Positions 170 through 19,032 of a stretch of 20,000 nucleotides of DNA are shown in pieces. Below the pieces are notes generated by a model. It made no database searches and was not told where the DNA came from. It saw only the letters and a program-made list of their open reading frames with translations. Location: positions 3,143,444 to 3,163,443 of the forward strand of contig NC_057753.1 of the NCBI RefSeq assembly GCF_004010195.1, given 5' to 3'. The DNA is from Chiloscyllium plagiosum (Eukaryota). Position numbers and translations under genes: made by a program. Position 1 is the stretch's first letter; every line of letters starts with the position of its first letter.

Positions 170-890
170 TGATGGTAGAGTCACTCAGCCCTGGATATCA
201 TCAACATGGCAATGCGAAAGGAGACATCCTTAATCTCAATGTGGCAAAAGATTTCAAACATGAGCATTGCTGGAAAAATACCAAGCCACCGACATGAGTG
301 TTAGAGCTTACTGACTATAGAAAGAGCTTTAACCATTTTTACAATCTTAAAAGCAACACAGCAGACGGAAACTACTCGTGCTGTCTGCGTGGAAATAGTT
401 ATCCATCCAAAAGAGTTTCAAGGGCACCCACACATGGGGAAAACTTAGAAATATGAGGATTGAGGTCAAGGTTTCAGATGCCCATCTTAGCTGGGAAAAA
501 GCTGTTTACCTGCACACTCCATCATCCCACATGCTGACACACCAGCAAGCTTACATGGACAAGAGATCCTTTACATGTCCAAACTGCAGGGAGTTCTATA
601 AAAGCTCGGAGGTACTGATGCTTCAGCAACACATTCACTCTGATGAAAGACCCTTTATGTGCTCTCAGTGTGGAACTAGGTTCAAGTGATTATTTGATCT
701 CACTGCACCAGCATGTTCACACTGGGGAGAGGCTGTTCTCCTGTCTGTGGGAAGAGATTTACCACCCAATTCAACCTACACACACATCAGCATCTATACT
801 CTGAACAAACGATACACATGCCCTGAGTGGGCAAAGGGACTCATTAAGTGAAATGATTCATTAATCTTCAGATACATTGGCAAATTCATT
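170..890 (+). pseudogene. Degenerate tandem C2H2 (Kruppel-type) zinc-finger exon, 5' part
   Basis: Frameshifted or stop-containing finger remnants: KSFNHFYNLK (~321-350), RSFTCPNCREFYKSSEVLMLQQHIHSDERPFMCSQCGTRFK* (564-689), HQHVHTGERLFSC (~706-744), YTCPEWAKG, and NLQIHWQIH (863-889). Confidence 0.88.
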
Positions 891-1029
891 ACAAGACTAT
901 AAGACATAGGAGTGGAAGTAAGGCCATTCGGCCCATCAAGTCCACTCCATTCAATCATGGCTGATGGGCATTTCAACACCACTGACCCGCACTCGCCCTA
1001 TATCCCTCAATTCCTTGCGAGGTTAAGAA

Positions 1030-3640
1030 TTTATCAATTTCTGCCTTGAAGACATTTAACGTCCCGGCCTCCACTGTGCTCTGTGGCAATGAATTCCACA
1101 GGCCCACCACTCTCTGGCTGAAGAAATGTTTCCTCATTTCCGTTCTAAATGGACCCCCTCTAATTCTAAGGCTGTGCCCACGGTCCTAGTCTCCCTGCCT
1201 GACGGAAACAATTTCTCAGCATCCACCCTTTCTAAGCCATGCATTATTGTGTAAGTTTCTATTAGATGTCCCCCTCAACCTTCTAAACTCTAATGAATAT
1301 AATCCCAGGATCCTCAGCTGTTCATCGTATGTTAAGCCGACCATTCCAGGGATCATCCGCGTGAATCTCCGCTGGAAACGCTCCAGTGCCAGTCTGTCCT
1401 TCCTCAGGTGTGAGGCCCAAAACTGGACACAGTATTCCAAACAGAGCCAAACTAGAGCTTTATGAGGTCTCAGTAGCACATCGCTGCTTTTACATTCCAA
1501 CCCTCTTGAGATAACATTACATTTGCTTTCTTAACCACAGACCCAACCTGCAAGACAACCTTTAGAGAATCCTGGACTAGCACTTCCAGATCCCTTTGTA
1601 CTTTGGCTTTATGAATTTTCTCACCGCTTAGAAAATAGTCTGTTCCTATATTCTTTTTTCCGAAGTGCAGGACCTCGCATTTGCTCACGTTGAATTTCAT
1701 CAGCCATTTCCTGGACCACTCTCCTAAACTGTCTAAATCTTTCTGCAGCCTCCCCACTTCCTCAGTACTACCTGCCTGTCCACCTAACTTCGTATCATCA
1801 GCGAACTTCGCCAGAATGCCCCCAGTCTCTTCATCCAGATCATTAATATATAAAGTGAACAGCTGCAGCCCCAACACTGAACCCTGCGGGACACCACTTT
1901 GTCACCGGCTGCCATTCCGAAAAAGAACCTTTTATCCCAACTCTCTGCCTTCTGTCAGACAGCCAATCCTCAATCCATGCCAGTAGCTCACCTTGAACAC
2001 CGTGGGCCCTCACCTTACTCAGCAGCGGGTTTCCCTGGTCTAACCAACTTGTTACCTCTTCAAAGAATTCTAACAGGTTTGTCAGGAACAACCTCCCCTT
2101 ACTAAATCCATGCTGACTTGTTCTAATCTGACCCTGCACTTCCAAGAATTTAGAAATCTCATCCTTAACAATGGATTCTAGAATTTCACTTACAACCGAG
2201 GTTAGACTAATCGGCCTATAATTTTCCATCTTTTGTTTTGATCCTTTCTTTAACAAGGGGGTTACAACAGCGATTTTCCAATCATCTGGGACTTTCCCTG
2301 ACTCCAGTGACTTTTGAAAGATTACAACCAATGCCTCCACTATTTCTTCAGCCACCTCCCACAGAACTCTAGGATGTAGCCCATCGAAGCCTGGAGATTT
2401 ACCAATTTTTAGCTTTTCTAGCACTTTCTCTTTTGTAATGGCTACCATACTTAACTCTGCCCCTTCACTCTCCTTAATTGTTGGGATATTACTCATGTCT
2501 TCTAGTGTGAAGACTGACACAAACATTCTTCAGCTATTTCCTTATCTCCCATCACAAGCCTTCCTGCATCAATTTGGAGTGGCCCAAATTCTATTTTTGC
2601 CTCTTGTTTATTTCTTATGTATTGAAAGAAACTTTTATTATCAATTCTAATATTACTGGCTTGCTTACCTTCATATTTGATCCTCTCCTTCCTTATTTCT
2701 CTCTTTCTTATCCTCTGTTTGTTTTTGTCGTCTTCCCAATCTTCTGATTTCCCAGTGCTCTTGGCCACTTTATTAGCTCTCTCTTTTTCTGTGATACATT
2801 TCCTGACTTCCTTTGTCAGCCATGGCTGTCTAATCCCACCCCCGGATAATCTTTCTTTTCTTTGGGAAGAACCTCTGTTACTGTGTCTTCAATTACACCC
2901 AAAAACTCCTGCCATTGTTGCTCTACTGTCTTCTCCACTAAGCATTGCTTCCAGCGACTTTCGTCAGTTCCTCTCTCATACCCCTGTAATTACCCTTATT
3001 TAACTGTAACACCATTACATCTGATGTTGCCTTCTCTCTTTCAAACTGCAGACTGAACTCTACCATATTATGGCCGCTGCCTCCTAAGTGTTCCCTTACT
3101 TTAAGCTCGTTTATAAAGTCTGGCTCATTACATAGCACTAAGTCCAGAATAGCCTGCTCCATCATAAGCTGTTCCAAAAAGCCATCTTGCAAGACTTGCA
3201 TGAATTCCCTTTCTTTGGATCCACCGGCAACATTACTCACACAGTCCACTTGCATATTGAAGTCCTCCATGATCACCGTGACTGTGTCTTTCTGACATGC
3301 TCTATCTATTTCCTGGTACATCGTGTGGCCCTGGTCCTCGGAGGTCTGCACACAAGTCCCATTGTGATTTTTTTGCCTTCGAGGCTCCTCAACTCCACCC
3401 ATCTGACCCTCTGTCATTTAGTGCCATAGATTAATTTCATTCTTAACTAACAAGGCAACCATGCCCCCTCTGCCCACCTCCCTGTCTTTTCGATGTTGTA
3501 AATCCTTGGATGTTTAACTGCCAGTCCTGAACCCCCTGCAACCACATCATAATCATTCACAATGATTTGTGCCGTTAATTCATCTGCTTTGCTCTGAATA
3601 CTATGAGCATTCAGGTAAAGCACCTTAATGCTAATTTTCT
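1030..3640 (-). pseudogene. CR1 ORF2 (APE endonuclease plus reverse transcriptase), disrupted; boundaries approximate
   Basis: ORF-track pieces 2938..3417, 2502..2768, 1843..2526, 1470..1877 and 1216..1500 are colinear CR1 ORF2 segments (KSPGFDGLHPRVL, PDDWKIAVVTPL, YINDLDE..FADDTKLGG, LEYCVQFW) separated by frameshifts and deletions. Confidence 0.92.
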
Positions 3641-3808
3641 TATCCTCATGATTTCCATCACCTCTAGTAGTATGTCCTCAGTTATCCTTCCTTTTTGTTT
3701 CATTCCTAGACTGCCTTGAACTGAAACCCTGCTCACATGCTAACCTGCTGCTTATCTTTCTACCTGATTCCATACTCTCTGTTGCTCTCCCTTTCCCTTC
3801 CCACCGAC

Positions 3809-4749: not shown

Positions 4750-5614
4750 GGCTCTCTCCCCCTTCCCTTCCTCCTCCATTGCATCTCCACCAAAGAGCAC
4801 TATGTCAGGAGCTCATGCAGTTCCTTTATCACTAAAATGCAAACCATCAAATCAGCTCCCTCTTCTGCTTCCCTTTCCCTCACTGGGCCAAACTGTCTAA
4901 ATTTCCTTGTCGGAGCCCTAAGCTTGGACCATTCTTCAGTGTTTCTCTGATCTCCCTTGATGGACTCTCAGAGCTCACCATATCCACAAGTCTAACATCT
5001 GTGAGATCAAAACCACTCACTGAATTTTCAGCGGTCAGTATCCCATGCCGTAAATGGCGAAGTTTCCAGGAACAGTCACTCTCTCCTTTAAACTGCCATC
5101 ATCACCAGTCTTTAAACAAAATCTGTTCAACTCTTCTTTGCAAACAACTGTCTCATCTCCAACCTCCCTTTTTGTTTCCTTGAGAAATGTTTCGCCTGTA
5201 AAATCTATGCACCTCCTTTCCAGAACTCCACGTCTGAATGCATCCAAGCAGTTTTCAGTCCCTGCCGCTGTACCCAAGCGTCTGTTATCAAAAGCACAAA
5301 TTACATCCTCCGGGACGATTCAGCCAAAAGGCTGGCCACAGCATTACTCCCCCGTTCTGACAAACAGACATGTGGGACGCAAAATATTAGCAGTTTCTCT
5401 TTCCACACATGCTGAGTTTCTGCACCACTCTCTGCACTTCTTTCAGATTTCCAGCAGCCACAGTATTTTGCTTTCAATCATTCCAACATCTCGCCAGTGT
5501 CATCCAACCAAGTGGGCTGCTCTCTCCTGCTCCCATTCTTCTCTGCCTGATCGTAACACTGGCAATGTCTTCCCTTCCCCCTCAGTTTCCTCTGGTGTCC
5601 CTTCTTATTTGTTA
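4750..5614 (+). mobile_element. Ancient L2-type LINE ORF2 (RT) fragment, left part
   Basis: Frameshifted remnants ELMQF/FITKMQTIKSA, GTVTLSFK/TAIIT, ANNCLISNLPF (cf. NYRPISNLPF), QHLASVIQ, ALSCSHSSLPDR and VSSGVP follow the L2 RT motif order. Confidence 0.72.
5354..5474 (+). repeat. Short degenerate interspersed repeat inside the L2 fragment; resembles the Penelope-type terminal repeat common in cartilaginous fish
   Basis: GTTCTGACAAA...TTTCTCTTTCCACACATGCTGAGTTT...TTTCAGATTTCCAGCAGCCACAGTATTTTGCTTT interrupts the L2 reading. The family is recognised from memory only. Confidence 0.5.
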
Positions 5615-6010
5615 ACAGAACACAGGATGGACATAGGACAGATGTCAGAGGTAGTTTCTTTACTCAGAGAGTAGTAGGGGCATGGAACTTACTGCCTGCA
5701 ACAGGATTGGACTCGCCAACTTTACGGGCACTTAAATGGTCATTGGATAGACATCTGGATGAAAATGAAATAGTGTAGGATAGATGGGCTTCAGACTGGA
5801 TTCACAGGGCAGCCCAACATCGAGGGCCGAAGGGCCTGGACTGAGCTGTTATGTTTTATGTTCTAACACAGAACTGCACAGCACAGGAATGGGCTCTTCA
5901 GCCCACGATGTTGTGCTGAACATGATGCCAAATTAAACTAATCCCTTCTGCCTGTATTGTCCATCTCCCTCCATTTCTTGCATATTTATGTGCTTATTTA
6001 AAAGTTCCTC
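5615..6010 (-). mobile_element. CR1-a 3' end (tail at 5615-5625, body at 5872-6010); continues at 13377-13519
   Basis: ACAGAACACAG + AACTGCACAGCACAGGAATGGGCTCTTCAGCCCACGATGTTGTG is a reverse-strand CR1 terminus. The whole element is bounded by TGTTA at 5610-5614 and 13520-13524. Confidence 0.85.
5626..5864 (+). mobile_element. CR1-b, short 5'-truncated 3' fragment inserted into the CR1-a tail
   Basis: Encodes RTDVRGSFFTQRVVGAWN and ends GGGCCGAAGGGCCT...TATGTTTTATGTTCT. Flanked by AACACAG at 5619-5625 and 5865-5871. Confidence 0.9.
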
Positions 6011-6028
6011 GAGTTCAGCAGAGATTTA
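6011..6028 (+). mobile_element. CR1-c 5' stub (VQQRF); continues at 12936
   Basis: GAGTTCAGCAGAGATTTA joins CTCGGACGTTGCTG to give VQQRFTRTLL, matching CR1 'RVQRRFTRML'. ATTTA is duplicated at 6024-6028 and 12931-12935. Confidence 0.8.
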
Positions 6029-6049
6029 GAACATAGAAAAGTACAGCAC
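6029..6049 (-). mobile_element. CR1-d 3' tail stub (the L1 target site); continues at 12131
   Basis: GAACATAGAAAAGTACAGCAC continues seamlessly as AGAACAGGCCTTTTGGCCC at 12131. Confidence 0.88.
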
Positions 6050-6219
6050 GGGGTTCCAAGATGGCAGCGACCCAGCAAGTCTGAGTCTACAGTGCTCCTC
6101 CTAAGACTTGGGCAAAGTGGGTCACTCACCCCCAACATACTCACCAAATCATTTAAAATAGCTGTTTAATCTAATTAGTTGTTTAGTATTGAATTTAAAC
6201 AATTTAATCTTCAGTATAT
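6050..6219 (+). promoter_or_regulatory. L1 5' UTR / putative internal promoter with YY1 motif CAAGATGGC at 6057-6065
   Basis: The motif sits at +8..+16 of the element, like the YY1 site near the 5' end of mammalian L1. The UTR is only 170 bp. Confidence 0.65.
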
Positions 6220-7065
6220 ATGACTAAAGGGAAGGGAGCCCGCAGCTCTCAGCAAGCAGGAACCCCTCCCCCACCCTCTCCAGCTGCAGCAGAGGCGTCC
6301 GCAGCCGCCCCGGGGGATTTAACTACGGTGGCGAGCCTCGTGGAAATCATCTCCAAACTGGATACGAAGATCGACGCTTTTATTGAAGAATCCCGAAGTC
6401 AATGGGACTCACTCTCGGCCGCGCTGCAAAAGCACGACCAAGACATTAAGGAAACCGAGCGCCGAGTCGGAGGGGCAGAGCTAAAGGCCGCAACCTCCGA
6501 GACTACAGCGCAATCGGCCGTGGATCAGGTCCAGACTCTCGAACAGTGAGTCCGGACCTGAGAGAACCACACTGATGACCTCGATAATCGAGGTCGTCGA
6601 AAACATATTAATTTGCTGGGCCTTCCCGAACGGGAAGAAGGCGGCCAGCTTACAGCGTTTCTTGAACAGTGGCTGCCACAGCTTTTAAATCTGGAGGCTG
6701 GATCAGGCCAGGTAAGGGTGGAATGGGCAATATGCGGGCCTGGCTCGAACCAGCGTCGTCGCCCGGTCCTGTTCCGGCGGGAGACCTAGAAGGAGAGGCA
6801 GATACTCCTATAAGCCTCTAGAAATCTTGGAAAAAATCCCCAAGCCATGATCCATAAAGGTTCCAAGATCATGTTATTCCAAGACTTTTCCCCAGCTCTG
6901 GTCCGAAAGAGGAAGGCATTCAATGAGGCGAAGAAGTATTTAAGGGACTTAACTATTCAGTACTCCTTACGCTACCCAGCGACGCTACGCTTTAACCATG
7001 AAGGAACCGTGTATAACTTCGGATCGCCGGAAAAGGCTAAGGAATTTTTGGACCCTCTTACATAA
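6220..7065 (+). pseudogene. L1 ORF1p (coiled coil, RRM and CTD; Transposase_22 type), 282 codons in one frame with 4 internal stops
   Basis: Motifs DDLDNRGRRKHINLLGLPE and FQDFSPALVRKRKAF..YSLRYPATLR. Stops at 6547, 6559, 6787 and 6811. Confidence 0.93.
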
Positions 7066-7778
7066 GTTGTAAGAGATAATTTGATGTTGGTTTGCCTTCC
7101 CCCCCTTTTTCTTTTTTTAACCTTACTGTTTAATATTATCTTGGGGGGTGGGGAGAGGGATTTATTTATTTGTTCTGTACTTAACGATTTTCTCCCCCCC
7201 CCCTTGGTTTTTTTATTATTCTCTCTCNNNNNNNNNNNNNNNNNNNNNNNNNNNNNNNNNNNNNNNNNNNNNNNNNNNNNGTGGTTACCTTATTCTATTT
7301 TACCTCTGTCTCTAGGAGCGGGGTTGTTTTCCCTTGTTATTTTGTATTATTATATTTAATTATTACTCGTTGAGGTTGTAATTTTATAGTTATATATGTT
7401 TATACATGGTATTAACATTACCAAATATATCCAGGTGTTGGTGTGGGTGGGGGTAGGGGTAGGGTGCTCACTGTTAACTCTAGCTCTGTAGTATATTTGA
7501 ATTCACCTCATCCTATTGAGGAGCGCCTGGGTCAAGGGTGGGGCACTGGTTGGGAGAGGATAGGATGGACCTTTGGAAAGGAAGTGATACCCCCTGGGAA
7601 CAAGGGGGAAAATCTCCATTTAAATACGTTTTATTTTTTTTTATTTAGAAATAGTTTTTTATTAAACTGTTGTGAGTGTATTAGAGCCTTTATTTTTGTG
7701 AATTTTATATGCTCTACGCTCGGGATGTTCTGGATAGGGTTCCCCCTCCCGAGGGGTCTCGGATTTGCCCGGACGATT
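7066..7778 (+). other. Long (~710 bp) T/G-rich L1 inter-ORF spacer, including the N gap at 7228-7280
   Basis: Lies between the ORF1 stop (7063-7065) and the likely ORF2 ATG (7779, MVDQSGKCCIWNVKG). Contains T tracts and G runs. Confidence 0.8.
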
Positions 7779-10700
7779 ATGGTTGATCAGTCGGGTAAGT
7801 GCTGCATCTGGAATGTCAAGGGGAGTAATTCGCCAGTCAAAAGGAAGAAAATATTATCAAATCTTAAGAAAGAAAGGGTTGATATAGCTCTCCTACAGGA
7901 GACACACCTGTTGGATAAAGAACACTTGGAATTGCGACAGGGTGGATTTGATCAGGCCTTTTTTTCTTCTTTTAGCTGAAAAAGCAGGGGAGTTGTTATT
8001 CTTATTCGGAAGAATTTCCCTTTCAAAATCCTAAATCAGATAAAAGACGAATCTGGACGATATATTCTGATTAAAGCCCTTATAAATGGAGAGGAATATG
8101 GGATTTTAAATTTGTATTGCCTCCTGGCACATCCTTTTAAATTTATAACGGAAGCCTTCTCAAAATTGATGACTTTTGGTGCCAGTCATACAATTATAGG
8201 GGGAGACTTTAATTGGATTATGGATCCAGAAATAGATAGGATTCCCAAGAGTACTGCAGGGGTATCTCCCAGATCTAGGCAATTGGTGGATCTGAATAAA
8301 GAGTTAGGATTAGTAGATGTATGGTGATGTCTTCATCCACAGGGCAGAGAGTTTTCTTTTTACTCCAATCCACATAAATGTCATACCAGAATTGATGTGT
8401 GTTTTGCCCCCTTGATTTTTTAAAATTCCATATCATCCTGTAAAATAGGTAGTATAGCAATTTCTGACCACGCTGCTGTATATATGGAAATCAAGGCGAG
8501 GAACAATGGGACATCTCCTCGGCATTGGCGTATGGACCCCTTCCTGATGAAAGATAGTAAATTTGTAAAGTACTTCTCTCAAGAATTTAAAACTTTTTTA
8601 GAAATTAATTTAGGTACGGCTAGCAACCCATCAATGATGTGGGAGACCATCAAAGCTTACGCGCGAGGTTTGATCATCTCCTACTCAGCGACCCAGAAAA
8701 AATTAAAGGGAGAACAACAGCATCTGCTCGAAGCTCGCTTAAAAGCAGCTGAAACAGCATACACTGATAGACCTTCTACTATTAAATTGCAAAGGATTAC
8801 GGCTCTTAGGACAGCTCTAAACACTACGCTTACCCAAACGGCTAAGAGGGAAAGATTATTTACAAAACAAAGGTTATATGAATTTGGCGACAAACCAGGT
8901 AGATACTTAGCATTTCTTACAAAGAAAAAAAAAGGCCCCAAACTATCACGTCTATCAAGGAAAGTACGGGTATTTTGACTCATGATCATAAAAAGATTAA
9001 TGCAATCTTTAGAAAATTTTATTCTGATTTATATAAATCGCAGGATTGTGAAGACAGGACTAGGAGGATGCAATCATTTTTTAAAAANNNNNNNNNNNNN
9101 NNNNNNNNNNNNNNNNNNNNNNNNNNNNNNNNNNNNNNNNNNNNNNNNNNNNNNNNNNNNNNNNNNNNNNNNNNNNNNNNNNNNNNNNNNNNNNNNNNNN
9201 NNNNNNNNNNNNNNNNNNNNNNNNNNNNNNNNNNNNNNNNNNNNNNNNNNNNNNNNNNNNNNNNNNNNNNNNNNNNNNNNNNNNNNNNNNNNNNNNNNNN
9301 NNNNNNNNNNNNNNNNNNNNNNNNNNNNNNNNNNNNNNNNNNNNNNNNNNNNNNNNNNNNNNNNNNNNNNNNNNNNNNNNNNNNNNNNNNNNNNNNNNNN
9401 NNNNNNNNNNNNNNNNNNNNNNNNNNNNNNNNNNNNNNNNNNNNNNNNNNNNNNNNNNNNNNNNNNNNNNNNNNNNNNNNNNNNNNNNNNNNNNNNNNNN
9501 NNNNNNNNNNNNNNNNNNNNNNNNNNNNNNNNNNNNNNNNNNNNNNNNNNNNNNNNNNNNNNNNNNNNNNNNNNNNNNNNNNNNNNNNNNNNNNNNNNNN
9601 NNNNNNNNNNNNNNNNNNNNNNNNNNNNNNNNNNNNNNNNNNNNNNNNNNNNNNNNNNNNNNNNNNNNNNNNNNNNNNNNNNNNNNNNNNNNNNNNNNNN
9701 NNNNNNNNNNNNNNNNNNNNNNNNNNNNNNNNNNNNNNNNNNNNNNNNNNNNNNNNNNNNNNNNNNNNNNNNNNNNNNNNNNNNNNNNNNNNNNNNNNNN
9801 NNNNNNNNNNNNNNNNNNNNNNNNNNNNNNNNNNNNNNNNNNNNNNNNNNNNNNNNNNNNNNNNNNNNNNNNNNNNNNNNNNNNNNNNNNNNNNNNNNNN
9901 NNNNNNNNNNNNNNNNNNNNNNNNNNNNNNNNNNNNNNNATAGCTTCAGTGTGGGTAGTGGCTGCCGTCAGGGATGTCCCCTCTCGCCATTGTTATTCAC
10001 GCTAATAATTGAACCACTAGCAGATGCTATACGAGCTGATCCTAATATAGTGGCCCCAAGGATTGGTACAGGTAAACATAAAATTACCCTTTATGCAGAT
10101 GATGTTCTTCTATTCCTCAGTAACCCTTTGATGTCCATACCTCGCTTAATCCAAGTTATTAATACATTTAGTGCATTCTCAGGCTATAAAATTAATTTTT
10201 CAAAATCGGAGGCTATGCCAATGGGTGGCCTTGCTGTGATACCCCGCTTAGCGGACGGTTCCCTTTTTCCCTTTCGCTGGTCCCTGGGGGGTTTCTTATA
10301 TTTAGGCATTTTTATTACTCCAGTATTTGGTCAGTTGTATAAGGCTAATTTTGTGTATTTATTGGAAAGGATAAGGCAGGACCTCCAGCGGTGGGGAGAC
10401 CTGCCAATTTCCTGGTTGGGTAGAATAGCATTAATCAAAATGAATATCCTGCCCCGTCTCCTATATCCTATGAGAATGCTTCCGGTGATGCTGCCGAGGA
10501 CAGCTTTATGTAAATTATACGGCTGGCTGAGTTCCTTTATCTGGAACCATAGGCGGCCCCTCATTAAGCTGAAGAAGCTACAGCTTCCACAGGCAAGGGG
10601 TGGATTGGATTTCCCAGATTTTAGGAAATATCAATTAAGTTCCCTATTAAGTTATATAGCTGATTGGGTCTTGTCTGATCCACATTCAATCTGGTTGGAC

Positions 10701-11794
10701 ATCGAGGCTTGTCAAGTAAAATACCCACTTATTAACCTTTTATTCTCAGACAAGAGGAAAATCATTACAGATCACTGTAAAAACCCTATAATACTAAACA
10801 CAATTAAGGCTTGGAATATAATGCGGCAAAATGAGGGTAATTCACATAAAACATCCCCCTATGCACCGATAGTGGGAGCATGGGGATTCCAACCGGGGTT
10901 AACAGATGCCACTTTTAAACTCTGGAGATCCAGGGGTATCTCATGTCTAGGGGATCTATTTAAAAATGGGGTCCTGATGTCTTTCGGATAGCTGCGTCAG
11001 AAATTCGGATTACCCAATGGAGACCTCTTTCGATTCTTCCAAATTCGAGATTTTATACAGAAGACTACGTTATTAGATAGTCTTTATAAATCCGATAGAG
11101 AATGTAGTGTCCTACGACCAGTGGGGGTATCTTCCGTCAGTAATATTTATCATTTGCTACATGATGAAGTATCGGGAGATATGGATAATCTGCTTAAAAC
11201 ATGGGATCAGGATTTGGGACTGGAAATCTCTATAGAAATGTAGAATGACATTTGGGAAAATGCCAGAAAAATTTCCATCTGCAACAGAACTCAGGCCATT
11301 CAGTTGAAGATACTTCATAGGGCCCATATAGCACCGGTTCGATTGGCAAAATTTAAGGCAGGAGCATCTCCAATGTGTCCCAAATGTAAAATAGAGGTGG
11401 GCACTCTTGTACATTGCCTATGGACCTGTCATAAGATCCGTAGATATTGGACTAAAGTAGCAAGTGCTCTGACAGAAATCTTAGGAACGGAAATTAGAGT
11501 GGACCCTGTATCTCTCCTTTTGGGCTTTTCGAACTTACCCTCCCTGGATATGTACGGGAAGAGATTATTTTCTATTCTCTCTTTCTGTGCAAGGAAAAAT
11601 ATTTTGGTAAACTGGGTGGCTGAGGGCCCCCCGGACTTTCAAATTGGCACAGGTTAATTATGGAATGTATTCCCCTTGACTTCCTTACAAATATGGTGCA
11701 CCAAAAGGCCGAATTATTTCATAAAATATGGCAGCCCTTCTTGAATTACATAAATACAGATATTTCGGCTAACCTAACAAGGGCTTTTATTTAA
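7779..11794 (+). pseudogene. L1 ORF2p (APE endonuclease, RT, C-terminal CCHC), disrupted; partly within the N gap
   Basis: Motifs WNVKG, LQETHL, GGDFN, ISDHA, GCRQGCPLSPLLF, YADD (10092-10103) and CPKCKIEVGTLVHCLWTC. Stops at 7977, 8325, 10989 and 11241. Frameshifts near the A-run at ~8930 and the C-run at ~11630. Ends ..WQPFLNY..RAFI*. Confidence 0.95.
9088..9939. other. Assembly gap (852 N) within L1 ORF2
   Basis: Run of N. Confidence 0.99.
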
Positions 11795-12130
11795 TTGAGA
11801 TTGCGAACCTGGCTAGTCCAGGGCCCCTTGGGAGAGGAATCCCGCATGAATACGGGTTTTGTTACATTTGATGTTAACACATTCCGAGCATGTATCTCAC
11901 TACCCAATTTCTGTATTATCCGTTGTTTTTTTTTCTTTCTCTTAGTTGAATAATGTAAGAGACTTAATTATACACTCTGGTTTTTCTGTTGTTAAATTTT
12001 GGTTATTATTTATTTAAGATTTAATTGTATATCAATGTTCGTACTTGAGAGTTTTGCTTATTTTTATAAACTTGTAAAAATGTTAAATTTCCAATAAAAA
12101 TATCTATAAAAAAAAAGAAAAGTACAGCAC

Positions 12131-12930
12131 AGAACAGGCCTTTTGGCCCACGATATTGTGCCGAGATTTAATCCGAATGTCAAACATAATAACTTAACCT
12201 CCGCTCCCCTCAACTCACTGCTATCCATGTGCATGTCCAGCAGATGCTTAAATGTCCCCAATGACTCTGCTTCCACCACCACCGCTGGCAACGCATTCCA
12301 TGCATTCACAACTCTCTGCAGAAAGAACCTACCTCTGCGGTCTCCTTTATACCTTCCTCCTAATATCTTCAAACTATGACCCCTCATACCAGTCGATCCT
12401 GCCCTGAGGAAAAGTCTCTGGCTATTGACTCCATCCATGCATCTCATTACCTTGTACACCTCTATCAGGTCTCCTCTCTTCCTCCTTCTCTCCAGAGAGA
12501 AAAGTCCGAGCTTATTCAACCTTTCTTCATAAGGCAAGCCCTCCAGTCCAGGCAGCAACCTGGTAAAACCTTCTTTGCACCCTCTCCAAAGCCTCCACAT
12601 CTTTCCTATAGTAGGGTGACCAGAACCGGACACAATATTCCAAGTGTGGTCTCACCAGGGACTTGTAGAGCTGCAGCAAAACCTCGCGGCTCTTAAACTC
12701 AATCCCCCTGTTAATGAGAGCCAAAACATGCTTTCTTAACAACCCTATCCACTTGGGTGGCAACTTTGAGAGATCTATGTACTTGCACACCCAGATCCCT
12801 CTGTTTCTCCACACTGCCAAGAATCCTGTCTTTAATCCTATATTCAGCATTTGAGTTCGACCTTCCAAAATGCATCAGTTCGCATTTATCAAGGTCGAAC
12901 TCCATCTGCCATTTCTCAGCCCAGCTCTGC
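12131..12930 (-). mobile_element. CR1-d body, 5'-truncated (~820 bp total with stub)
   Basis: ORF2 C-terminus WAEKWQMEF, LYKSLVRPHLEYCVRFWSP, LGLFSLERRR, FFLQRVVNAWNALP, plus the 3' UTR stem-loop. Confidence 0.93.
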
Positions 12931-12935
12931 ATTTA

Positions 12936-13373
12936 CTCGGACGTTGCTGAGAATGGAGGGTTTAAGTTATAGGGAGAGGCTGGACAGGCTGGGACTATTT
13001 TCACTGGAGGTTAAGAGGTGGCCTTATAGAAGCTTCTCAAGTCATGAGGGGCATGGACAAGGCAAATGGCAGATGTCTTCTCCATCAGATGGTGGATTCC
13101 GAGACTCGGGGGCAAATTTTCAAGATGAGAGGAGAAAGATTTTTTAAGACAGTGATTTTCTTTTTTACACAGAGTGGTTCGTGTGTGGAATGAACTTGAG
13201 AGGAAATGGCGGATGCGGGTGCAGTTACAACATTTAAAAGACGTTTAGAGAAGTACATGAATAAGAAAGGTTTGGAGGGATATAGCCCAAGCAGGCAGGT
13301 GGGACTAGTTTAGTTTGGGATTATATTCGGCATGGACCGGCTGGACCGTAGGGTCTGTATCTGTGCTGTATGA
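12936..13373 (+). mobile_element. CR1-c body and 3' end
   Basis: Encodes TRTLLRMEGLSYRERLDRLGLFSLE and FFTQSG..WNEL, and ends GGACCGTAGGGTCTGTATCTGTGCTGTATGA(CTC). CTC occurs at 6008-6010 and 13374-13376. Confidence 0.9.
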
Positions 13374-13376
13374 CTC

Positions 13377-13519
13377 TTAAATGCCCCGATCGTATCTGCC
13401 TCCACCAACACCCAGGCAGCGCATTCCAGACTCCTATTACTGTGTAAAACGTCTTGCCCCTCACATCTCCTTTGAACTTCCCCCTCTCACCATAAATGGA
13501 TGCCCCTCAGTATTAGGCA
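13377..13519 (-). mobile_element. CR1-a, remainder (5'-truncated end)
   Basis: TTAAATGCCCCGATCGTATCTGCCTCCACC...GGCAGCGCATTCCA continues from TGTGCTTATTTAAAAGTTCCTC (to 6010), in the same order as in CR1-d at 12228-12300. Confidence 0.85.
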
Positions 13520-13524
13520 TGTTA

Positions 13525-13600
13525 TCCACCCACTCAGTAATGAGGGGTTTGGAAACAGTGTCAGCTCTTACATGTTTACTGACAGCTTCCAGCCTGGCCT
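13525..13600 (+). mobile_element. L2-type RT fragment, right part (decayed YADD region)
   Basis: PLSN...VSSYMFTDSFQ resembles PLGDII..VSFHMYADDTQ, the motif expected just after GVP..LLF at 5594-5610. Confidence 0.6.
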
Positions 13601-13644
13601 CAGTGACCCTGGAAGTATCATAACTTTAAGATCACCATCGAGCT

Positions 13645-13715
13645 AAAGTAAAGGAAAAGGCCCTTTGGCCCATCGTATCTGTGCTGGTCATGAAAAAAAA
13701 ACACCTAGCTGTTCT
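13645..13715 (-). mobile_element. Very short CR1/SINE 3'-end fragment
   Basis: GAAAAGGCCCTTTGGCCCATCGTATCTGTGCTGG is the conserved CR1 3' stem-loop on the reverse strand. Confidence 0.6.
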
Positions 13716-14051
13716 ATAATATGACAGAAATTCAGAACAGATTATTCTAGTTTCTGTGAAACATTATTTCTCCTTTCATTTCCTCAGATCTATAAATACC
13801 CTGTCTCAAACGCATGTCCTCATCTTCCCTCTTGCTCACTGTTCCATTTTCAGGTCTTCTACGAGATTCATTCAGCGCAGTAAAGGCCCACTGCACCTAC
13901 ACAACTACCACGGAATGTACGCTCATCCCAATTTCCTGCACTTGTCCCTTACCTTTGAATGTTATGTTATTTGAAGTACTCATCCAAATTGTTTTTTTAA
14001 TAAGGTTATAAGGTTTGGGCCTCTGCTTCTCAGTGCTTTGCAGGTTCCCAC

Positions 14052-14781
14052 TGCAAGCGGGCATCAGACCGCCCTGCTTTTGACACGGGACTATGCCTAC
14101 ATCAGGAAACTATAAGAATTCATTTTGTGTTTTAAACAGCAGTCGCAGCTTTAAACCCACAGAACTCAGCAGCTGCCGGTCTGCCCACGTGACCGGGAGA
14201 TAGGAGACAGAGGACAGATCAAATCCACACTAGACCAACACTACCCATGACTCATAGACCAAAACTCCGGAATTAATTAATATGGAAACCCATCTCCGAA
14301 TCACATCAAGAGACTGACTGAAACACACCCATACCCATCGATACGGAACCATTCTGACACAAAGGACAGGCATCCACCAGACAGGAACGGACAGACCAAT
14401 ACACACCAACACCCCAAGGGAACAAAGGGGGGTGCTAGCCCCCTGCCCTCACAGAGAGAGACAAGCAGATAATACCCGGACCCGTTTTACATAAACCAAT
14501 TAGCACCCTATTGTGCGTGCCCTGCAACTCTCCTGGGACGGTAGGAAACAGTCTATTCGCACCTACTCCAGTGATGATGGGGAACTATCATCCCATTCAT
14601 CCTCAAATTCCACACATCCTGACAACTAAAAGTATATAATATGTAGCTGCGTGCGGGAACAGGACAGCAGCTGAGATTCAGACCTTGGTTGGTCTCCGCC
14701 GGCGTTACTGTAACAATAAACGTTACCGATTGTTGAACCGCACTCTGGGCTCGGACTGATATCATTTCATCCGCGCTAACA
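14052..14781 (+). mobile_element. Candidate solo LTR (730 bp; ERV class I or Gypsy type)
   Basis: Termini TGCAAGCGGG...CGCGCTAACA form TG..CA with an imperfect inverted repeat. 4-bp TSD CCAC at 14048-14051 and 14782-14785. CCAAT at 14496, TATATAA at 14633-14639 and AATAAA at 14715-14720. The CR1 host resumes after it. Confidence 0.82.
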
Positions 14782-15548
14782 CCACCATCTGCCGAGTGAA
14801 AATGTATTTTCCCAAACCCCCTGGGAATCTCCTGCTCCTTACGGTATCATGATTTCTCCCTCAACCAAGGGAACACCTGCTCTCTATTCACCCTCACCAT
14901 CTTATATCCCTCAATCGCCCCTCAGAATCCACACACGATCATACACTTGAAGAATTCTAACCAATTTGTTAGACGTGACCTCCCTCTGACAAAGCCGAAC
15001 TAAGTCACGCCTTGCCAAGTGGGCCTGAGTTCGCTTCTTCAGAATTTTCTCCAATAATTTTCCTACCACTGACATGAGACTCACCGGTCCATCTCTACCA
15101 CCCCTTTTCAACAGTGCAACCACATTAACCATCCTCCAGGCCTCTGGCACTTCCCCTGTGGCTAAACAGAAATTAAAAATTTGTATCAGAGCTCCTGCAA
15201 TTTCCTGCCTCGTCTCTACAGCAGCTTGGGATGCAATTACTCTGGGGACTTGGCAGTTCTTATGACCAACACAGCCTCCAATATCTCCCGATTTCCTATG
15301 TCAAACTGCGCAAGTTCCTCACAGTCCTTTTTCCTGAATTCCTTATCTACGTTGTTCTATTCTAGAGTGAAGACCGAAGAGAAGTCTTCATTCAACACCC
15401 TTCCAATATTCTGCGGCGTCACACAATTCTGAGGTGGCCCCTTTCATCCCTAACAGGCCCCATTCATTCCCTGTTTAACCTCTTCCCTTTAATAGGATTC
15501 TCCCTAATCCTGTTCGCAAGTCTTTTCTCATGCCCCTTTTTTGCTCTT

Positions 15549-16238
15549 AGAATTATAGAGATGTACAGCACGGAAACAGACACATCGGTCCAACTCATCC
15601 GTGATGACCAGATATCCCAACCTAATCTGATCCCATTTGCCAGCACTTGGCCCATATCCCTCTCAACCCTTCCTTTTCATATACCCATTTTAAAATGTTG
15701 TAAATGTCCCAGCCTACACCACTTACTCATATACATACCACCCTCTGTGCGAAAAAGTTGCCCCTTAGGTCTCTTTTATATCTTTCCCCTCTCACCCTAA
15801 ACCTATGCCCTCTAGTTCTGGACTCCCCGACCCCAGGGAAAAGACTTTGTCTATTTACCCTATCCATGCGCCTTATGGTTTTACAAACCTCTATGAGGTC
15901 ACCCCTCAGCCTCAAACATTGCAGGGAAAACAGACCAAACCTATTCAGCCTCTCTCCGGCAACACCCTTGTAAATATTTTCTGAACCCTTTCAAGTTTCA
16001 CAACATCTTTCCGATAGGATGGAGTCCAGAACTGCACGCAATATTCCAACAGTGGCCTAAACAATGTCCTGTACAGCCGCAACATGACCTCCTAACTCCG
16101 GTACTCAATACTCTGACCAATAAAGGAAAGCATACCAAACGCCTTCTTCACTATCCTATCTACCTGCGACTCACTTTCAAGGAGCTATGAACCTGCACTC
16201 CAAGGTCTCTTTGTTCAGTAACACCGCTATTCAGTGTA
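15549..16238 (-). mobile_element. Younger CR1 (HER1-like), 5'-truncated, ~690 bp
   Basis: Tail ATAGAGATGTACAGCACGGAAACAGAC and ORF2 end MRLRGDLIEV..FFAQRVV. It interrupts the old CR1. Confidence 0.9.
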
Positions 16239-16945
16239 TTCTAATTGCTTTCGTCAGTTCTTTCCTGCACTTCTTGTGTTCCTTTAGGGCCGCAGCTGAA
16301 TAGGCTTGAGAAAAGCACTACTCTTCTTCTTTACCCAGTCCTGAACTATCCTAGACACCCAGGGTTCTCTGAACCTATTGCTACTGCATTTCCCTCGAAA
16401 GGGTAGACGTTGGAGCTGCATTCTCCCCAGTTCCTTTTTGAATGCCACCCGGTTGCTCAGCTACACACTTACCCGCAAGGAGCCACTCCCAGTCTACTGT
16501 GGGATATACTTTGAATTAAATCTGTGCTTCGACTAATCCAAAGCCATCTTTTGCAGGCCATCTTTTTCTTTGGCCAAAACATAATTGAACCGCAGTACGT
16601 TGTGATTGCTATCACTAAAACAGCGCTCCCCCACTGCAACATGGAACATGAGTCCAGCTTCTTCCCTCAGAATCACAGCCAGCAATATACCATCCCTTAT
16701 TGGAGCTTCTACACATTGATACCAAAATGTCCCCAGATGCATTTTGAGAAATCCACCCTCATTACACCTTTAATACGATGGCTATTCAAAGTCATGTTGA
16801 GAAAGTTGAAATCCCCGAATACAATCACCTGATTATTACTCTCACACACTTGTGAGCTGCCTACATATTTGCACCTCTCTTTGACTCTTTGGGGGCATAT
16901 AATACACTCCCACTAAACTCGCTGCTCCCTTATCATTCCTAAGTT

Positions 16946-17453
16946 ATAGTGATAGAGATGTAGAGCACGGAAACAGACCCCTCGGTCCAACTCGTCCATG
17001 CCAACCAGATATCCGAACCTAATCTAGTCCCACTTGCCAACACTTGGCCCATACCCGTCTAAGCCCTTCTTATTCACATACCCATCCAGATGCCTTTTCA
17101 ATGTTGTAATTGCACCAGCCTCCACCACTTCCTCTGGCAGCTCATTCCATACTCGCACCCGAAACCTATGCCCTCTGGTTCTGGCCTCACCTTAATCCAG
17201 GGAAAAGACTTTGTCTATTTATCCTACTTGTGCCCATCATAATTTTATAAATCTCTATAAGGTCAGCCTCCAATGCTCCAGGGAAAACAGCGCCAAGCTG
17301 TTCAGCCTCTTGTTATAGCTCAAATCCTCCAGCCCCAGCAACATCCTTGTAAATCTTTTCTGAACTCTTTCAAGTTTCACAACATCCTTCCGACAGGAGG
17401 GAGACCAGAATTGCACGCAATATTCCAACAGTGGCCTAACCAATGTCCCGTAT
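16946..17453 (-). mobile_element. Younger CR1, same subfamily as 15549, ~510 bp
   Basis: Tail ATAGTGATAGAGATGTAGAGCACGGAAACAGACCC and TLVRPLLEYCVQFWSP. GTT at 16943-16945 and 17454-17456 is a possible TSD. Confidence 0.9.
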
Positions 17454-17862
17454 GTTCTCCCCACAAAGCCTTGTTTGATGACCACTCCAAGATATTGTCT
17501 CTCCTCACTGTAGTAACTGACTCCTTAATTAAGAGTGCACACCACCATCCTATTTACAAACTCCTCTGTTTCCCCTAAAGATTCTTTACTGCAGAATGTT
17601 GCGTTGCCAGTCCAGCCCTTCCCTCAAAAATATGTTGTGATGGCAACAATATCACATGTCCATGTGTCAATTCATGGCATTAACTCATCAGTCTTACCTC
17701 ATACACTCTCAGAGACACAGTTCACTGCATAGATATATCTTGTAAATGCATAATATTGCAGATACTGGAGACGAGGTTAGCTAACTGGGTGAAGGAAGCC
17801 ACTTTGAGACTGAAAGTTAACTGAAGAGAAATCCTGCGATTAACCAAATGTATAAACTCGTT

Positions 17863-18136
17863 AGGGGCTGCACGGTGGCTCAGTGGTTAGCACGGCTGCC
17901 TCACAACACACAGACCCGGGTTCATTTCCAGCCTCAGGCAACTGTCGTGTGAAGTTTGCACATTCTCCCGATGTCTGCGTGGATTTCTCCGGGTGTGCAG
18001 GTTATTGCCCATAGTGTTAAGTTCACTAGTCAAAGGGAGATGGGTCTGGGTGGGTTGCTGTTTGGAGGGACGGTGTGGACGTGTTGGGCCGAATGGCCTA
18101 TTTCCACACTGTAGGGAATCTAATCTAATCTGATCT
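17863..18136 (+). mobile_element. HE1/V-SINE type SINE with internal deletions
   Basis: A box TGGCTCAGTGG (17876-17886), B box GGTTCATTTCC (17919-17929), CR1-like stem GGGCCGAATGGCCT and an (AATCT)n tail. Possible TSD CTCGTT/CTCATT at 17857-17862 and 18137-18142. Confidence 0.92.
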
Positions 18137-18289: not shown

Positions 18290-18788
18290 GATTGATTAGA
18301 TTAGTTAAAGTGTGGAAACAGGCCCTTTGGCCTGACAAGTCCACACCGACCCTCCGAAGATTAGATTAGATTAGATTACAGTGTGGAAACAGGCCCTTCG
18401 GCCCAACAAGTCCACACCGACCCGTCGAAGCAAAACCCACCCATACCCCTACATTTACCCCTAACCTAACACTACGGGCAATTTAGTATGGCCAATTCAC
18501 CTGACCCTGCACATCTTTGGATGGTAGGAGGAAACCGGAGCACCCGGAGGAAACCCACGCAGACACGGGGAGAACGTGCAAACTCCACACAGTCAGTCGC
18601 CTGAGTCGAGAATTGAACCCGGGTCTCTGGCGCTGTGAGGCAGCAGTGCTAACCACTGTGCCACCGTGCCGCCCACAACAGAAGAGCAACCCACACAGAC
18701 CCATTTCCCACACCTAACAGTATGGGCAATTTAGCATGGCCAATTCACCTAACCTGCAAATTTTTGGACTGTGGGAGGAAACCGGAAC
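18290..18788 (-). mobile_element. Outer SINE (18290-18360 plus 18686-18788), lacking its tRNA head
   Basis: Tail GATTGATTAGATTAG and ..CCGACCCTCCGAAGA resume as GCAACCCACACAGACCCAT..GGAGGAAACCGGA, then stop at the minisatellite. Confidence 0.85.
18361..18680 (-). mobile_element. Inner full-length, young HE1/V-SINE type SINE
   Basis: (TTAGA)3 tail, complete body and head GGGCGGCACGGTGGCACAGTGGTTAGCAC with B box GGTTCAATTC. TSD GAAGA at 18356-18360 and 18681-18685. CpGs are retained. Confidence 0.95.
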
Positions 18789-19032
18789 GCGAGAGCGAGT
18801 GACAGCGCGAGAGCGAGAGACAGCGCGCGAGAGAGAAAGCGCGAGAGAGAGAGAGCGAGAGAGAGAGAGATCGCGCGCGCGGTCTCTCTCCCTCCCGCGC
18901 GCGGGCGAGAGACAGAGAGCACGGGCGAGAGACAGAGAGAGCGGGCGAGAGACAGAGAGAGCGGGCGAGAGACAGAGAGAGCGCGTGAGAGACAGAGAGA
19001 GAGCGCGAGAGACAGAGAGAGAGCGCGAGAGA
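18789..19032. repeat. GA/CG-rich compound micro/minisatellite with ~20-bp units GCGGGCGAGAGACAGAGAGA
   Basis: About six 18-22 bp units at 18901-19032, preceded by (GA)n and (CG)n runs. Confidence 0.95.

Follow-up and report, generated by a model that had tools for sequence, protein, structure and literature searches.

Five dead non-LTR elements are nested one within another at this shark locus, and the nest is real. With high probability, it is a stack of independent insertions by target-primed reverse transcription that took place at different times in repeat-saturated shark DNA. A full-length L1 lies in the CR1 fragment CR1-d, which itself lies in CR1-c, CR1-c in CR1-a and CR1-a in a decayed outer host, while CR1-b entered CR1-a from the side (Table 1). 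All positions refer to the window, namely, the whole stretch of 20,000 nt that was analysed.

Table 1. Coordinates of the nested elements, their direct repeats and further features in the window.
Feature	Position	Strand	Remarks
Outer host, left part	4750-5609	+	heavily decayed; probable RT region of the L2 clade, labelled by its motifs
Additional short repeat within the outer host	about 5346-5478	.	candidate 4-bp repeat CATT at 5342/5479; missed by the earlier note
TGTTA, CR1-a target duplication	5610-5614 (left), 13520-13524 (right)	+	
CR1-a 3' tail	5615-5625	-	unit ACAGAAC on + strand; includes left AACACAG
AACACAG, CR1-b repeat	5619-5625 (left), 5865-5871 (right)		
CR1-b	5626-5864	+	239-nt CR1, truncated at its 5' end, inside the CR1-a tail
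CR1-a, middle part	5865-6010	-	includes right AACACAG; ends in left CTC
CTC, CR1-c repeat	6008-6010 (left), 13374-13376 (right)		
CR1-c 5' stub	6011-6028	+	VQQRF; includes left ATTTA
ATTTA, CR1-d repeat	6024-6028 (left), 12931-12935 (right)	+ (right)	
CR1-d 3' tail	6029-6049	-	includes left L1 duplication
L1 target duplication, left copy, AGAAAAGTACAGCAC	6035-6049		15 bp; within the CR1-d 3' tail
L1	6050-12115	+	full-length, dead
L1 5'UTR	6050-6219	+	
L1 ORF1	6220-7065	+	4 stops
N runs inside L1	7228-7280 and 9088-9939		not mentioned by the earlier note
L1 ORF2	7779-11794	+	5 stops, 2 frameshifts outside the gap
L1 AATAAA	12093-12098	+	
L1 short poly(A), A8	12108-12115	+	
L1 target duplication, right copy, AGAAAAGTACAGCAC	12116-12130	+	15 bp
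CR1-d body	12131-12930	-	whole element 821 nt, 5'-truncated
CR1-c body	12936-13373	+	whole element 456 nt
CR1-a, 5'-side part	13374-13519	-	includes right CTC; whole element 293 nt
Outer host, right part	13525-13640	+	IHPL...SYMFTDSFQ, from translation
Repeat in repeat	18359-18680		same 20-kb window

Direct repeats were present at all five junction pairs that the earlier note had listed, and none was longer than given there. From 4000 random position pairs with a slack of ±2 nt per junction, the probability of finding a repeat of the same or greater length by chance was 0.30 for 3 bp, 0.025 for 5 bp, 0.003 for 7 bp and 0.0008 for 15 bp. The 15-mer flanking the L1 occurs only twice within the window. 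The first two letters of the right ATTTA are common to the CR1-d 5' end. CTC alone is not evidence because of its high chance of occurrence. It also equals the end of CR1-c's own tail, and AACACAG is a rotation of the 7-nt tail unit of CR1-a; as read from the letters, both repeats are indistinguishable from the tail sequence of CR1. The repeat lengths of 15 bp for the L1 and of 3-5 and once 7 bp for the CR1s agree with the clade-specific peaks at 13-15 bp and 3-5 bp (PMC4245944).

After excision of the inserts, CR1-a, CR1-c and CR1-d were collinear with paralogs and homologous proteins, and their host parts had the same orientation and were continuous across the insert. Removal of CR1-d restored VQQRF-TRTLL in CR1-c, which then aligned without gaps across the junction to CR1 proteins (aa 808-840 of P0003) as well as to an in-window paralog, with 17 of its first 19 nt identical. 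The rejoined CR1-a aligned across the junction to all four CR1 3' ends in the window, but contained two extra nt approx. 5 nt left of the junction compared to each of them. Since it is 2 nt too long, the CTC reading of the CR1-c/CR1-a junction is not unique. The earlier note was right on the L1 in the minus-strand CR1-d and on CR1-d in the plus-strand CR1-c. For CR1-c in the minus-strand CR1-a, the nesting stood, with a junction that can be read in more than one way; for CR1-b, the repeat is present, but may be a host tail unit.

All four CR1 layers matched the six proteins P0001-P0006, which we take to be CR1 proteins by their motifs; their source records do not call them CR1. CR1-d matched them with E ≤1e-42 and 67-83% identity over 235-244 codons with 2-3 frameshifts, followed by CR1-c with E ≤6e-13, 47-55% identity and 3 frameshifts. 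CR1-b (E ≤2e-10) was 72% identical to aa 893-942 of P0005 without lesions in 50 codons, while CR1-a matched all six weakly (E 4e-8 to 0.02). As is typical of the CR1 clade, the layers (239-821 nt) are 5'-truncated and end in short tandem-repeat 3' tails without poly(A). The CR1 paralogs in the window are only 62-65% alike. For family DNA, a metagenome scan gave 80 loci (40-53% protein identity) and a GTDB scan 15 loci (43-59%), none of which was sufficiently close to be used as such; the best had 57-64% DNA identity to CR1-d.

At the core of the nest lies an L1 that is full-length but dead. Its ORF1 matched residues 105-277 of human L1 ORF1p (E = 6e-5) and is of the L1 type; in Pfam, it gave weak coiled-coil matches and no Transposase_22. 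ORF2 matched human L1 ORF2p with E = 5e-51 compared to 6e-7 for R2, and PF03372 (APE endonuclease, E = 7e-12) and PF00078 (RT, E = 6e-13) were both above the cut-off. Its best relatives were fish L1-like proteins with 51-58%. The element shares with the vertebrate L1 clade (human ORF1p 2ykp, ORF2p 8sxt; fish L1-like proteins P0057-P0176) the 5'UTR, the coiled-coil ORF1, the APE endonuclease-RT-CCHC ORF2, AATAAA with a poly(A) end and the 15-bp duplication. It differs in being dead, with 9 stops and 2 frameshifts outside the gap, and in a spacer of ∼700 nt between the ORFs. The N run in ORF2 comprises 852 nt, while ∼642 nt would be expected from homologs (aa 436-650), an excess of ∼210 nt. The interior sequence is incomplete and could at most be a mixture of copies. 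At the insertion site, the bottom strand reads 5'-TTTTCT/AT, a pyrimidine run like that used by L1 endonucleases.

Public contigs were considered as 32 listed of 324,591 pieces and 15 listed of 1001 joints from four runs. Among these 32, contigs bridged two of the ten junctions, both on the right side and none at the L1, namely, the CR1-c/CR1-a junction (X15 record 23, 13325-13482, one difference) and the right TGTTA junction (X15 record 24, X1 record 8 and X10 record 16). CR1-a is present at the same site in a related species (organism C) with 4-6% divergence and therefore predates the split from it. CR1-c has a probable ortholog in organism B (12967-13316). No empty-site joint was found among the 15 listed of 1001 joints. 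Paralog contigs join 5954 to 13374-13455 (13376 in all four runs, with 4, 2, 2 and 4 contigs), the intervening letters not being known. In all four runs, 133-189 contigs carry CR1-d family sequence that departs from the window exactly behind 12932, and these loose ends place the 5' truncation of CR1-d at the right repeat. The absence of long near-identical contigs in L1 and CR1-d in the same-species runs was not used as evidence, as the records were filtered with 32 listed of 324,591. An assembly in which the two halves had been scaffolded wrongly across the N runs would account for these two runs, the excess length of one of them and the lack of a contig spanning the L1 or its junctions among those listed. 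Still, a false join would not yield four repeat pairs in mirror order, including a 15-mer with only two sites in the window, or three hosts with collinear halves, and such an artefact is hardly credible.

The outermost layer is plausibly an L2 RT, a label that we assign by its motifs. The translations of the left part contain ISNLPF..LE and SSGVP, and the end of the right part is presumably a decayed form of the L2 string YMLPL...MYADDTQ. The motifs stand in the order of L2 on both sides, and the decayed YADD follows PL after 13 residues, which is the spacing of L2. In the CR1 proteins, the span from GVPQG to ADD is 34 residues, 3 shorter than in L2. Between 4600 and 5233, contig depth was 26-31 compared to 22.7 for a single-copy contig (X15) and no paralog was found at ≥88%; the summed depth indicates only an absence of close paralogs, not a copy number.

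Every tool search with the outer host was blank. Phmmer against 1.8 billion representative proteins gave two matches, both tandem-repeat artefacts, a word search gave six candidates with none at E ≤10, and an atlas one match at 0.76 that was counted as blank. No match was obtained in Pfam, by a degenerate motif scan of viral contigs or by blastn against plasmids, and none of the RT loci taken from five contaminated genomes matched in an L2-like way. When all 178 proteins were compared by tblastn, noise alone was returned for the outer host, and its motif strings had only irrelevant matches in the literature. A frameshift-aware CR1 profile scored 16 compared to 14.8 ± 2.0 for shuffles, and the right part added nothing. 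The blank results would suit a nest of four levels only, in which the outer sequence is decayed DNA, either unrelated or in a different arrangement, and linked by nothing but TGTTA. This is unlikely, given the 5-bp repeat exactly at both CR1-a ends and the ordered, correctly spaced motifs that we take for L2; the tests are moreover weak, as the references compared included no L2 sequence. Of the earlier claim on this layer, the repeat-flanked CR1-a was borne out, but the searches returned neither the L2 identity of the host nor the adjacency of its halves. At the additional short repeat in the outer host, 409-510 contigs per run end loosely behind 5474 in three of the four runs. Galeomorph sharks are reported to lack detectable full-length L2s (PMC13343379), and the locus is consistent with this.

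Because the nesting is confirmed, the order of insertion is outer host, CR1-a, CR1-c, CR1-d and L1; of CR1-b, the nesting tells only that it came after CR1-a. This is the chronology of the earlier note, apart from its naming of the oldest layer as L2. The note had also expected divergence to fall from outer to inner layers. Frameshifts per 100 codons did fall from 5.0 in CR1-a (3.3 without the one at the junction) to 2.5 in CR1-c, 0.8 in CR1-d and 0.2 in L1 ORF2, with counts of 2-3 events. However, protein identity did not separate CR1-a from CR1-c, nor did total lesions separate CR1-d from the L1. Decay proxies resolve only that CR1-a and CR1-c are older than CR1-d and the L1.

The five left junctions span 435 nt (5614-6049), in agreement with the ∼440 bp from which a local insertion hotspot had been proposed, and a further insertion lies ∼270 nt leftward. 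A hotspot of a few hundred bases at the level of the chromatin or locus is nevertheless very unlikely. Given the nest and the host lengths, a left span of ≤440 nt has a probability of 0.083 under random insertion and the span cannot exceed 1816 nt; with hosts this short, the clustering requires no regional hotspot. Outside the nest, the window is likewise dense in repeats and nests: at least 64% of this remainder is repeat, and it holds three or four other nests, with two further CR1-in-CR1 insertions whose host is continuous at aa 125/126 and 365/366 of P0004. The long separation of the insertions, with CR1-a older than the split from organism C, also speaks against a hotspot. With a repeat content of 33%, a uniform-insertion model, which ignores deletion and loss of recognisability, gave 61-123 elements per Gb that lie five or more levels deep; the number rose to 752-1504 per Gb with 50% repeat, and with 70% the model gave 0.16-0.31 per 20 kb. 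In elasmobranchs, 22-34% of the genome consists of CR1-group elements (PMC13343379). Rfam gave no matches in the window. Antisense insertion as a rule was considered, since each of the five inserts runs antisense to its host, which chance would produce in 1 of 32 cases. It was rejected, as the two other CR1-in-CR1 nests are sense.

Proximity to host ends exceeds what uniform insertion gives. The 40-nt cluster has p≈0.004 (uncorrected and with a post hoc threshold), counted as three of four insertions no more than 21 nt away from a host end. Two of these three fall into CR1 3' tails, a sequence that is a target in itself. It is in such tails that the L1 and CR1-b lie, at 21 and 11 nt from the end, respectively. 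Together with the pyrimidine run at the L1 site, this could reflect strong sequence targeting in which the L1 family, and perhaps the CR1s, home on microsatellite or T-rich CR1 tails. Position hotspots within hosts are the rule in human nests, where 654 of 799 types of insertion depart from what is expected (PMC2836564). Strong targeting is doubtful, however, as there is a single locus, 13 loosely matching sites are present in CR1-d, the other nests in the window lie in host bodies, and the L1 has an ordinary ORF1 and its closest ORF2 relatives among fish L1-like proteins. L1s of this type are not known to be target-specific. Targeting would add to the explanation by independent insertions and not replace it. 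The more specific version, a shark L1 family strongly directed to 5'-TTTTCT/AT in CR1-d-type tails and CR1s priming on each other's tail repeats, is improbable. If true, the abundant CR1 tails would form a genome-wide sink in which deep nests are built and L1s diverted from unique DNA. Literature searches, with most subscription journals outside their coverage, gave no account of shark CR1/L1 nests or CR1-tail targeting.

In the favoured sequence of independent insertions, an old element, probably an L2, would have received the 3' fragment CR1-a, which was then entered by two further CR1 fragments, CR1-b in the tail and CR1-c in the body. CR1-c would have received CR1-d, whose T-rich tail was probably nicked by the L1 endonuclease at 5'-TTTTCT/AT. 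Target-primed reverse transcription may have used 2-4 nt of microhomology between tail and primer. The left clustering would result mainly from the shortness of the hosts and from the leftward position of minus-strand tails, together with a modest preference for the sequence of CR1 tails. The nest is presumably neutral and without a function of its own.

It is an ordinary transposon-in-transposon stack rather than a special structure; where a genome is saturated with repeats, such by-products are expected and have been well described. TinT analyses used the same element-in-element logic for relative chronology, with 1,978 nested CR1 cases in chicken and, for primates, more than 9,300 Alus in nests (PMC2169234 and PMC3014933). 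Here, a single shark locus is five deep and cannot yield family activity periods, and its CR1 junctions have short repeats, which bird CR1s are treated as lacking in those studies. The 18-nt CR1-c stub is below the TinT default minimum of 20 nt. For the human genome, close to 300,000 exact nestings are reported, and older elements are likewise entered at preferred positions, e.g. the A-rich Alu linker (PMC2836564); in contrast to those genome-wide statistics, the tail preference here is suggested by two events only. PMC4245944 describes the same ∼15-bp duplications for full-length L1s and, for truncated L2/CR1-type inserts, 3-5 bp duplications accompanied by 5' microhomology or extra nucleotides. 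The 7-bp repeat of CR1-b exceeds that 3-5 bp peak.

As it stands, the nest matters little beyond being a clean teaching example of nested retroposition. It adds one data point to the chronology of shark LINEs, with an old L2-like host, three CR1 waves and then an L1, and scoring its layers as present or absent could provide markers for the three related species of the public runs. Greater importance would follow only if a genome-wide count showed shark L1s homing on CR1 tails.

The main support for the nest is the continuity of the host halves, and the direct repeats are of unequal evidential value. All five repeat pairs claimed in the earlier note were found at their positions and none was longer. 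Between 4000 random position pairs from the window, with 2 nt slack per junction, repeats of at least 3, 5, 7 and 15 bp occurred by chance in 30%, 2.5%, 0.3% and 0.08% of cases, respectively. The 15-mer flanking the L1 is present just twice in the window. CTC also forms the terminal letters of the tail of CR1-c itself. AACACAG can be obtained by rotating the 7-nt repeat unit of the CR1-a tail, so that the same picture would result if a tail of three units had received a blunt insertion.

Features of the nest and of the rest of the window (strand in brackets)
Feature	Position	Direct repeat	Observation
L1		15-mer, 6035/12116
CR1-d		ATTTA, 6024/12931
CR1-c		CTC, 6008/13374
CR1-a		TGTTA, 5610/13520
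CR1-b		AACACAG, 5619/5865	side insertion in CR1-a tail
Insert in outer host	5346-5478	candidate CATT, 5342/5479	terminal part of a short, very abundant repeat
Larger N run in L1	9088-9939
Coding remnants	540-830		decayed, zinc-finger-like by eye (presumably C2H2), within uncovered stretch 170-996
CR1 left of nest	997-3695 (-)		near full-length decayed ORF2, endonuclease to C-terminus
Uncovered stretch	13640-14907		1.27 kb outside protein and self-similarity screen coverage; starts with CR1-tail-like fragment
A/C-rich segment	~14190-14750		within 13640-14907
Split CR1	14931-17713 (-)		long, decayed, interrupted by two younger CR1 3' fragments
First fragment	~15546-16244	candidate TTGCT, 15541/16245
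Second fragment	~16944-17452	candidate TAT, 16945/17451
Short repeat	18290-18790 (-)		host of a similar, (ATTAG)n-ended copy; presumably a SINE
(ATTAG)n-ended insert	18359-18680	GAAGA, 18356/18681	one junction with 4 extra letters
Its relatives	1-170; 17865-18136

Removal of CR1-d rejoined CR1-c to VQQRFTRTLL as proposed, and the product aligned in a single piece to CR1 ORF2 proteins (aa 808-840 of the reference P0003). It also aligned from its first base to a paralog at 16940-17480 with 17 of 19 nt identical over the junction. The rejoining proposed for CR1-a stood in part: it aligned over the junction to each of the four CR1 3' ends present elsewhere in the window, but exceeds all of them by 2 nt, ~5 nt left of the junction. 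Given this surplus, the CR1-a/CR1-c junction may have arisen through a 3-bp duplication to which an insertion was added later, or through blunt insertion accompanied by extra 5' nucleotides. Contigs from other copies link 5954 to 13376 in all four public runs compared (4, 2, 2 and 4 contigs; intervening letters not known). CR1-d showed 67-83% identity over 235-244 codons to six homologous reverse transcriptase (RT) proteins, the best match being from Stegostoma; by motif reading we take these references (P0001-P0006) to be CR1 proteins, their source records giving no CR1 name. In all four runs, 133-189 CR1-d-family contigs per run depart from the window behind 12932, which fixes the 5' truncation point of CR1-d at the right copy of ATTTA; the microhomology there is 2 nt. 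CR1-like RTs were also found under bacterial names, namely P0002, P0004 and the loci L081-L094 (Klebsiella, Carnobacterium and a Dysgonomonas MAG, the last with 135 RT matches), apparently contaminating animal DNA in these assemblies.

The L1 matched human L1 ORF1p (E=6e-5) and ORF2p (E=5e-51), and the endonuclease and RT Pfam domains of its ORF2 scored above cut-off. Its ORF1 is of the usual L1 type. Judged from its sequence it is a dead copy, because ORF1 carries four stops and ORF2 five stops and two frameshifts in 1043 codons; both frameshifts are letters absent relative to other copies in public contigs. The larger of its two N runs spans 852 nt vs ~642 nt needed by homologs. The ~210 nt beyond the missing ORF2 stretch may stem from a wrongly sized gap or conceal one more insertion. 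Its pre-insertion site, the CR1-d tail, reads 5'-TTTTCT/AT on the bottom strand and resembles TTAAAA, the L1 motif cited by PMC3014933.

The outer host translates to ISNLPF..LE and SSGVP on the left side and IHPL..SYMFTDSFQ on the right side, which we take to be L2 RT motifs in correct order and with L2 spacing. No search gave a match to an L2 reference or profile, and the L2 label, drawn from these motifs, is putative. No paralog of the outer host was present at 88% in the four runs, as expected for the oldest layer; its depth was 26-31 vs 22.7 for a single-copy contig (X15). The abundant short repeat inside it is a sixth insertion in this host, and contig ends lie loosely behind 5474 in three of the four runs (409-510 per run).

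Four of 24 public runs were compared. The unique flanks were 99.2-99.8% identical in organism A (2/871 and 7/869 letters different), and organisms B and C differed from the window by ~3-6%. Two of ten junctions were bridged among the 32 of 324,591 contig pieces listed: the right CR1-c/CR1-a junction by X15 record 23 (49 + 106 nt flanking, 1 difference) and the right CR1-a/host junction by X15 record 24, X1 record 8 and X10 record 16. Since the last comes from organism C, the CR1-a insertion is older than the split from that organism. X5 record 31 fits 12967-13316 with 21 differences and 11 gaps (depth 9.8) and is probably the CR1-c ortholog in organism B. No empty-site joint was found among the 15 of 1001 joints listed. 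A 610-nt contig of organism B (X5 record 32) fits 13630-13943 alone, its first 281 letters being unmatched, and no contig of B among those listed crosses 13604; possibly, a B-specific insertion or deletion lies near the right end of the nest.

The nesting upheld the proposed insertion order of host, CR1-a, CR1-c, CR1-d and L1; for CR1-b, only an age later than CR1-a follows. The expected fall of divergence from outer to inner layers was seen in frameshifts per 100 codons (CR1-a 5.0, or 3.3 minus the junction one; CR1-c 2.5; CR1-d 0.8; L1 ORF2 0.2), but protein identity did not separate CR1-a (47-59%) from CR1-c (47-55%), nor did stops plus frameshifts separate CR1-d (0.8) from L1 (0.7, or 0.8 with ORF1). 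CR1-b had no frameshift in 50 codons. With 2-3 events per CR1 layer, the decay measures support a coarse order only.

Non-LTR elements insert by target-primed reverse transcription, and each layer would represent an independent event of this kind. From the sequence, CR1-d would have used microhomology of TA with the primer at its tail and AT at its 5' end, and CR1-c CTCT at its tail. The repeat lengths agree with the clade-specific duplication peaks in PMC4245944 (L1 13-15 bp, L2/CR1 3-5 bp), which also describes truncated inserts with microhomology. All five insertions of the nest at 5610-13524 are antisense to their host (chance 1 in 32); the window's other two CR1-in-CR1 nests have sense orientation.

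The regional hotspot suggested from the clustered left junctions was not borne out against random nesting: hosts of 293, 456 and 821 nt allow a maximal span of 1816 nt, and a span of ≤440 nt has P=0.083 given these lengths. Lower values were obtained for the tight cluster (CR1-d 18 nt, L1 21 nt, same side; P=0.004) and for three of four insertions lying ≤21 nt from a host end (P=0.004), both uncorrected and picked post hoc. Two of these three end-near insertions are in CR1 tails. Targeting of CR1 tails is an improbable reading; a mild preference for them is plausible, because human nests commonly show positional hotspots within the host element (PMC2836564).

A uniform-insertion model, with deletion and decay left out, put the number of elements at depth ≥5 at 61-123 per Gb for a repeat content of 33% and at 752-1504 per Gb for 50%; for 70% it gave 0.16-0.31 per 20 kb. 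Repeats make up 78-83% of the window in total and at least 64% of its part outside the nest. The window holds further nests; the protein register of the split CR1 is continuous at P0004 aa 365/366 and 125/126. Reported values are 33% LINEs and 50% repeats for the whale-shark assembly (PMC8455134) and 22-34% CR1-group elements for elasmobranch genomes (PMC13343379). On these grounds, such nests, compact ones included, are expected without a regional hotspot. The situation is the same as in TinT chronology, for which PMC2169234 and PMC3014933 describe thousands of nested events in birds and primates, and the locus is a new example of an already known kind of nest.
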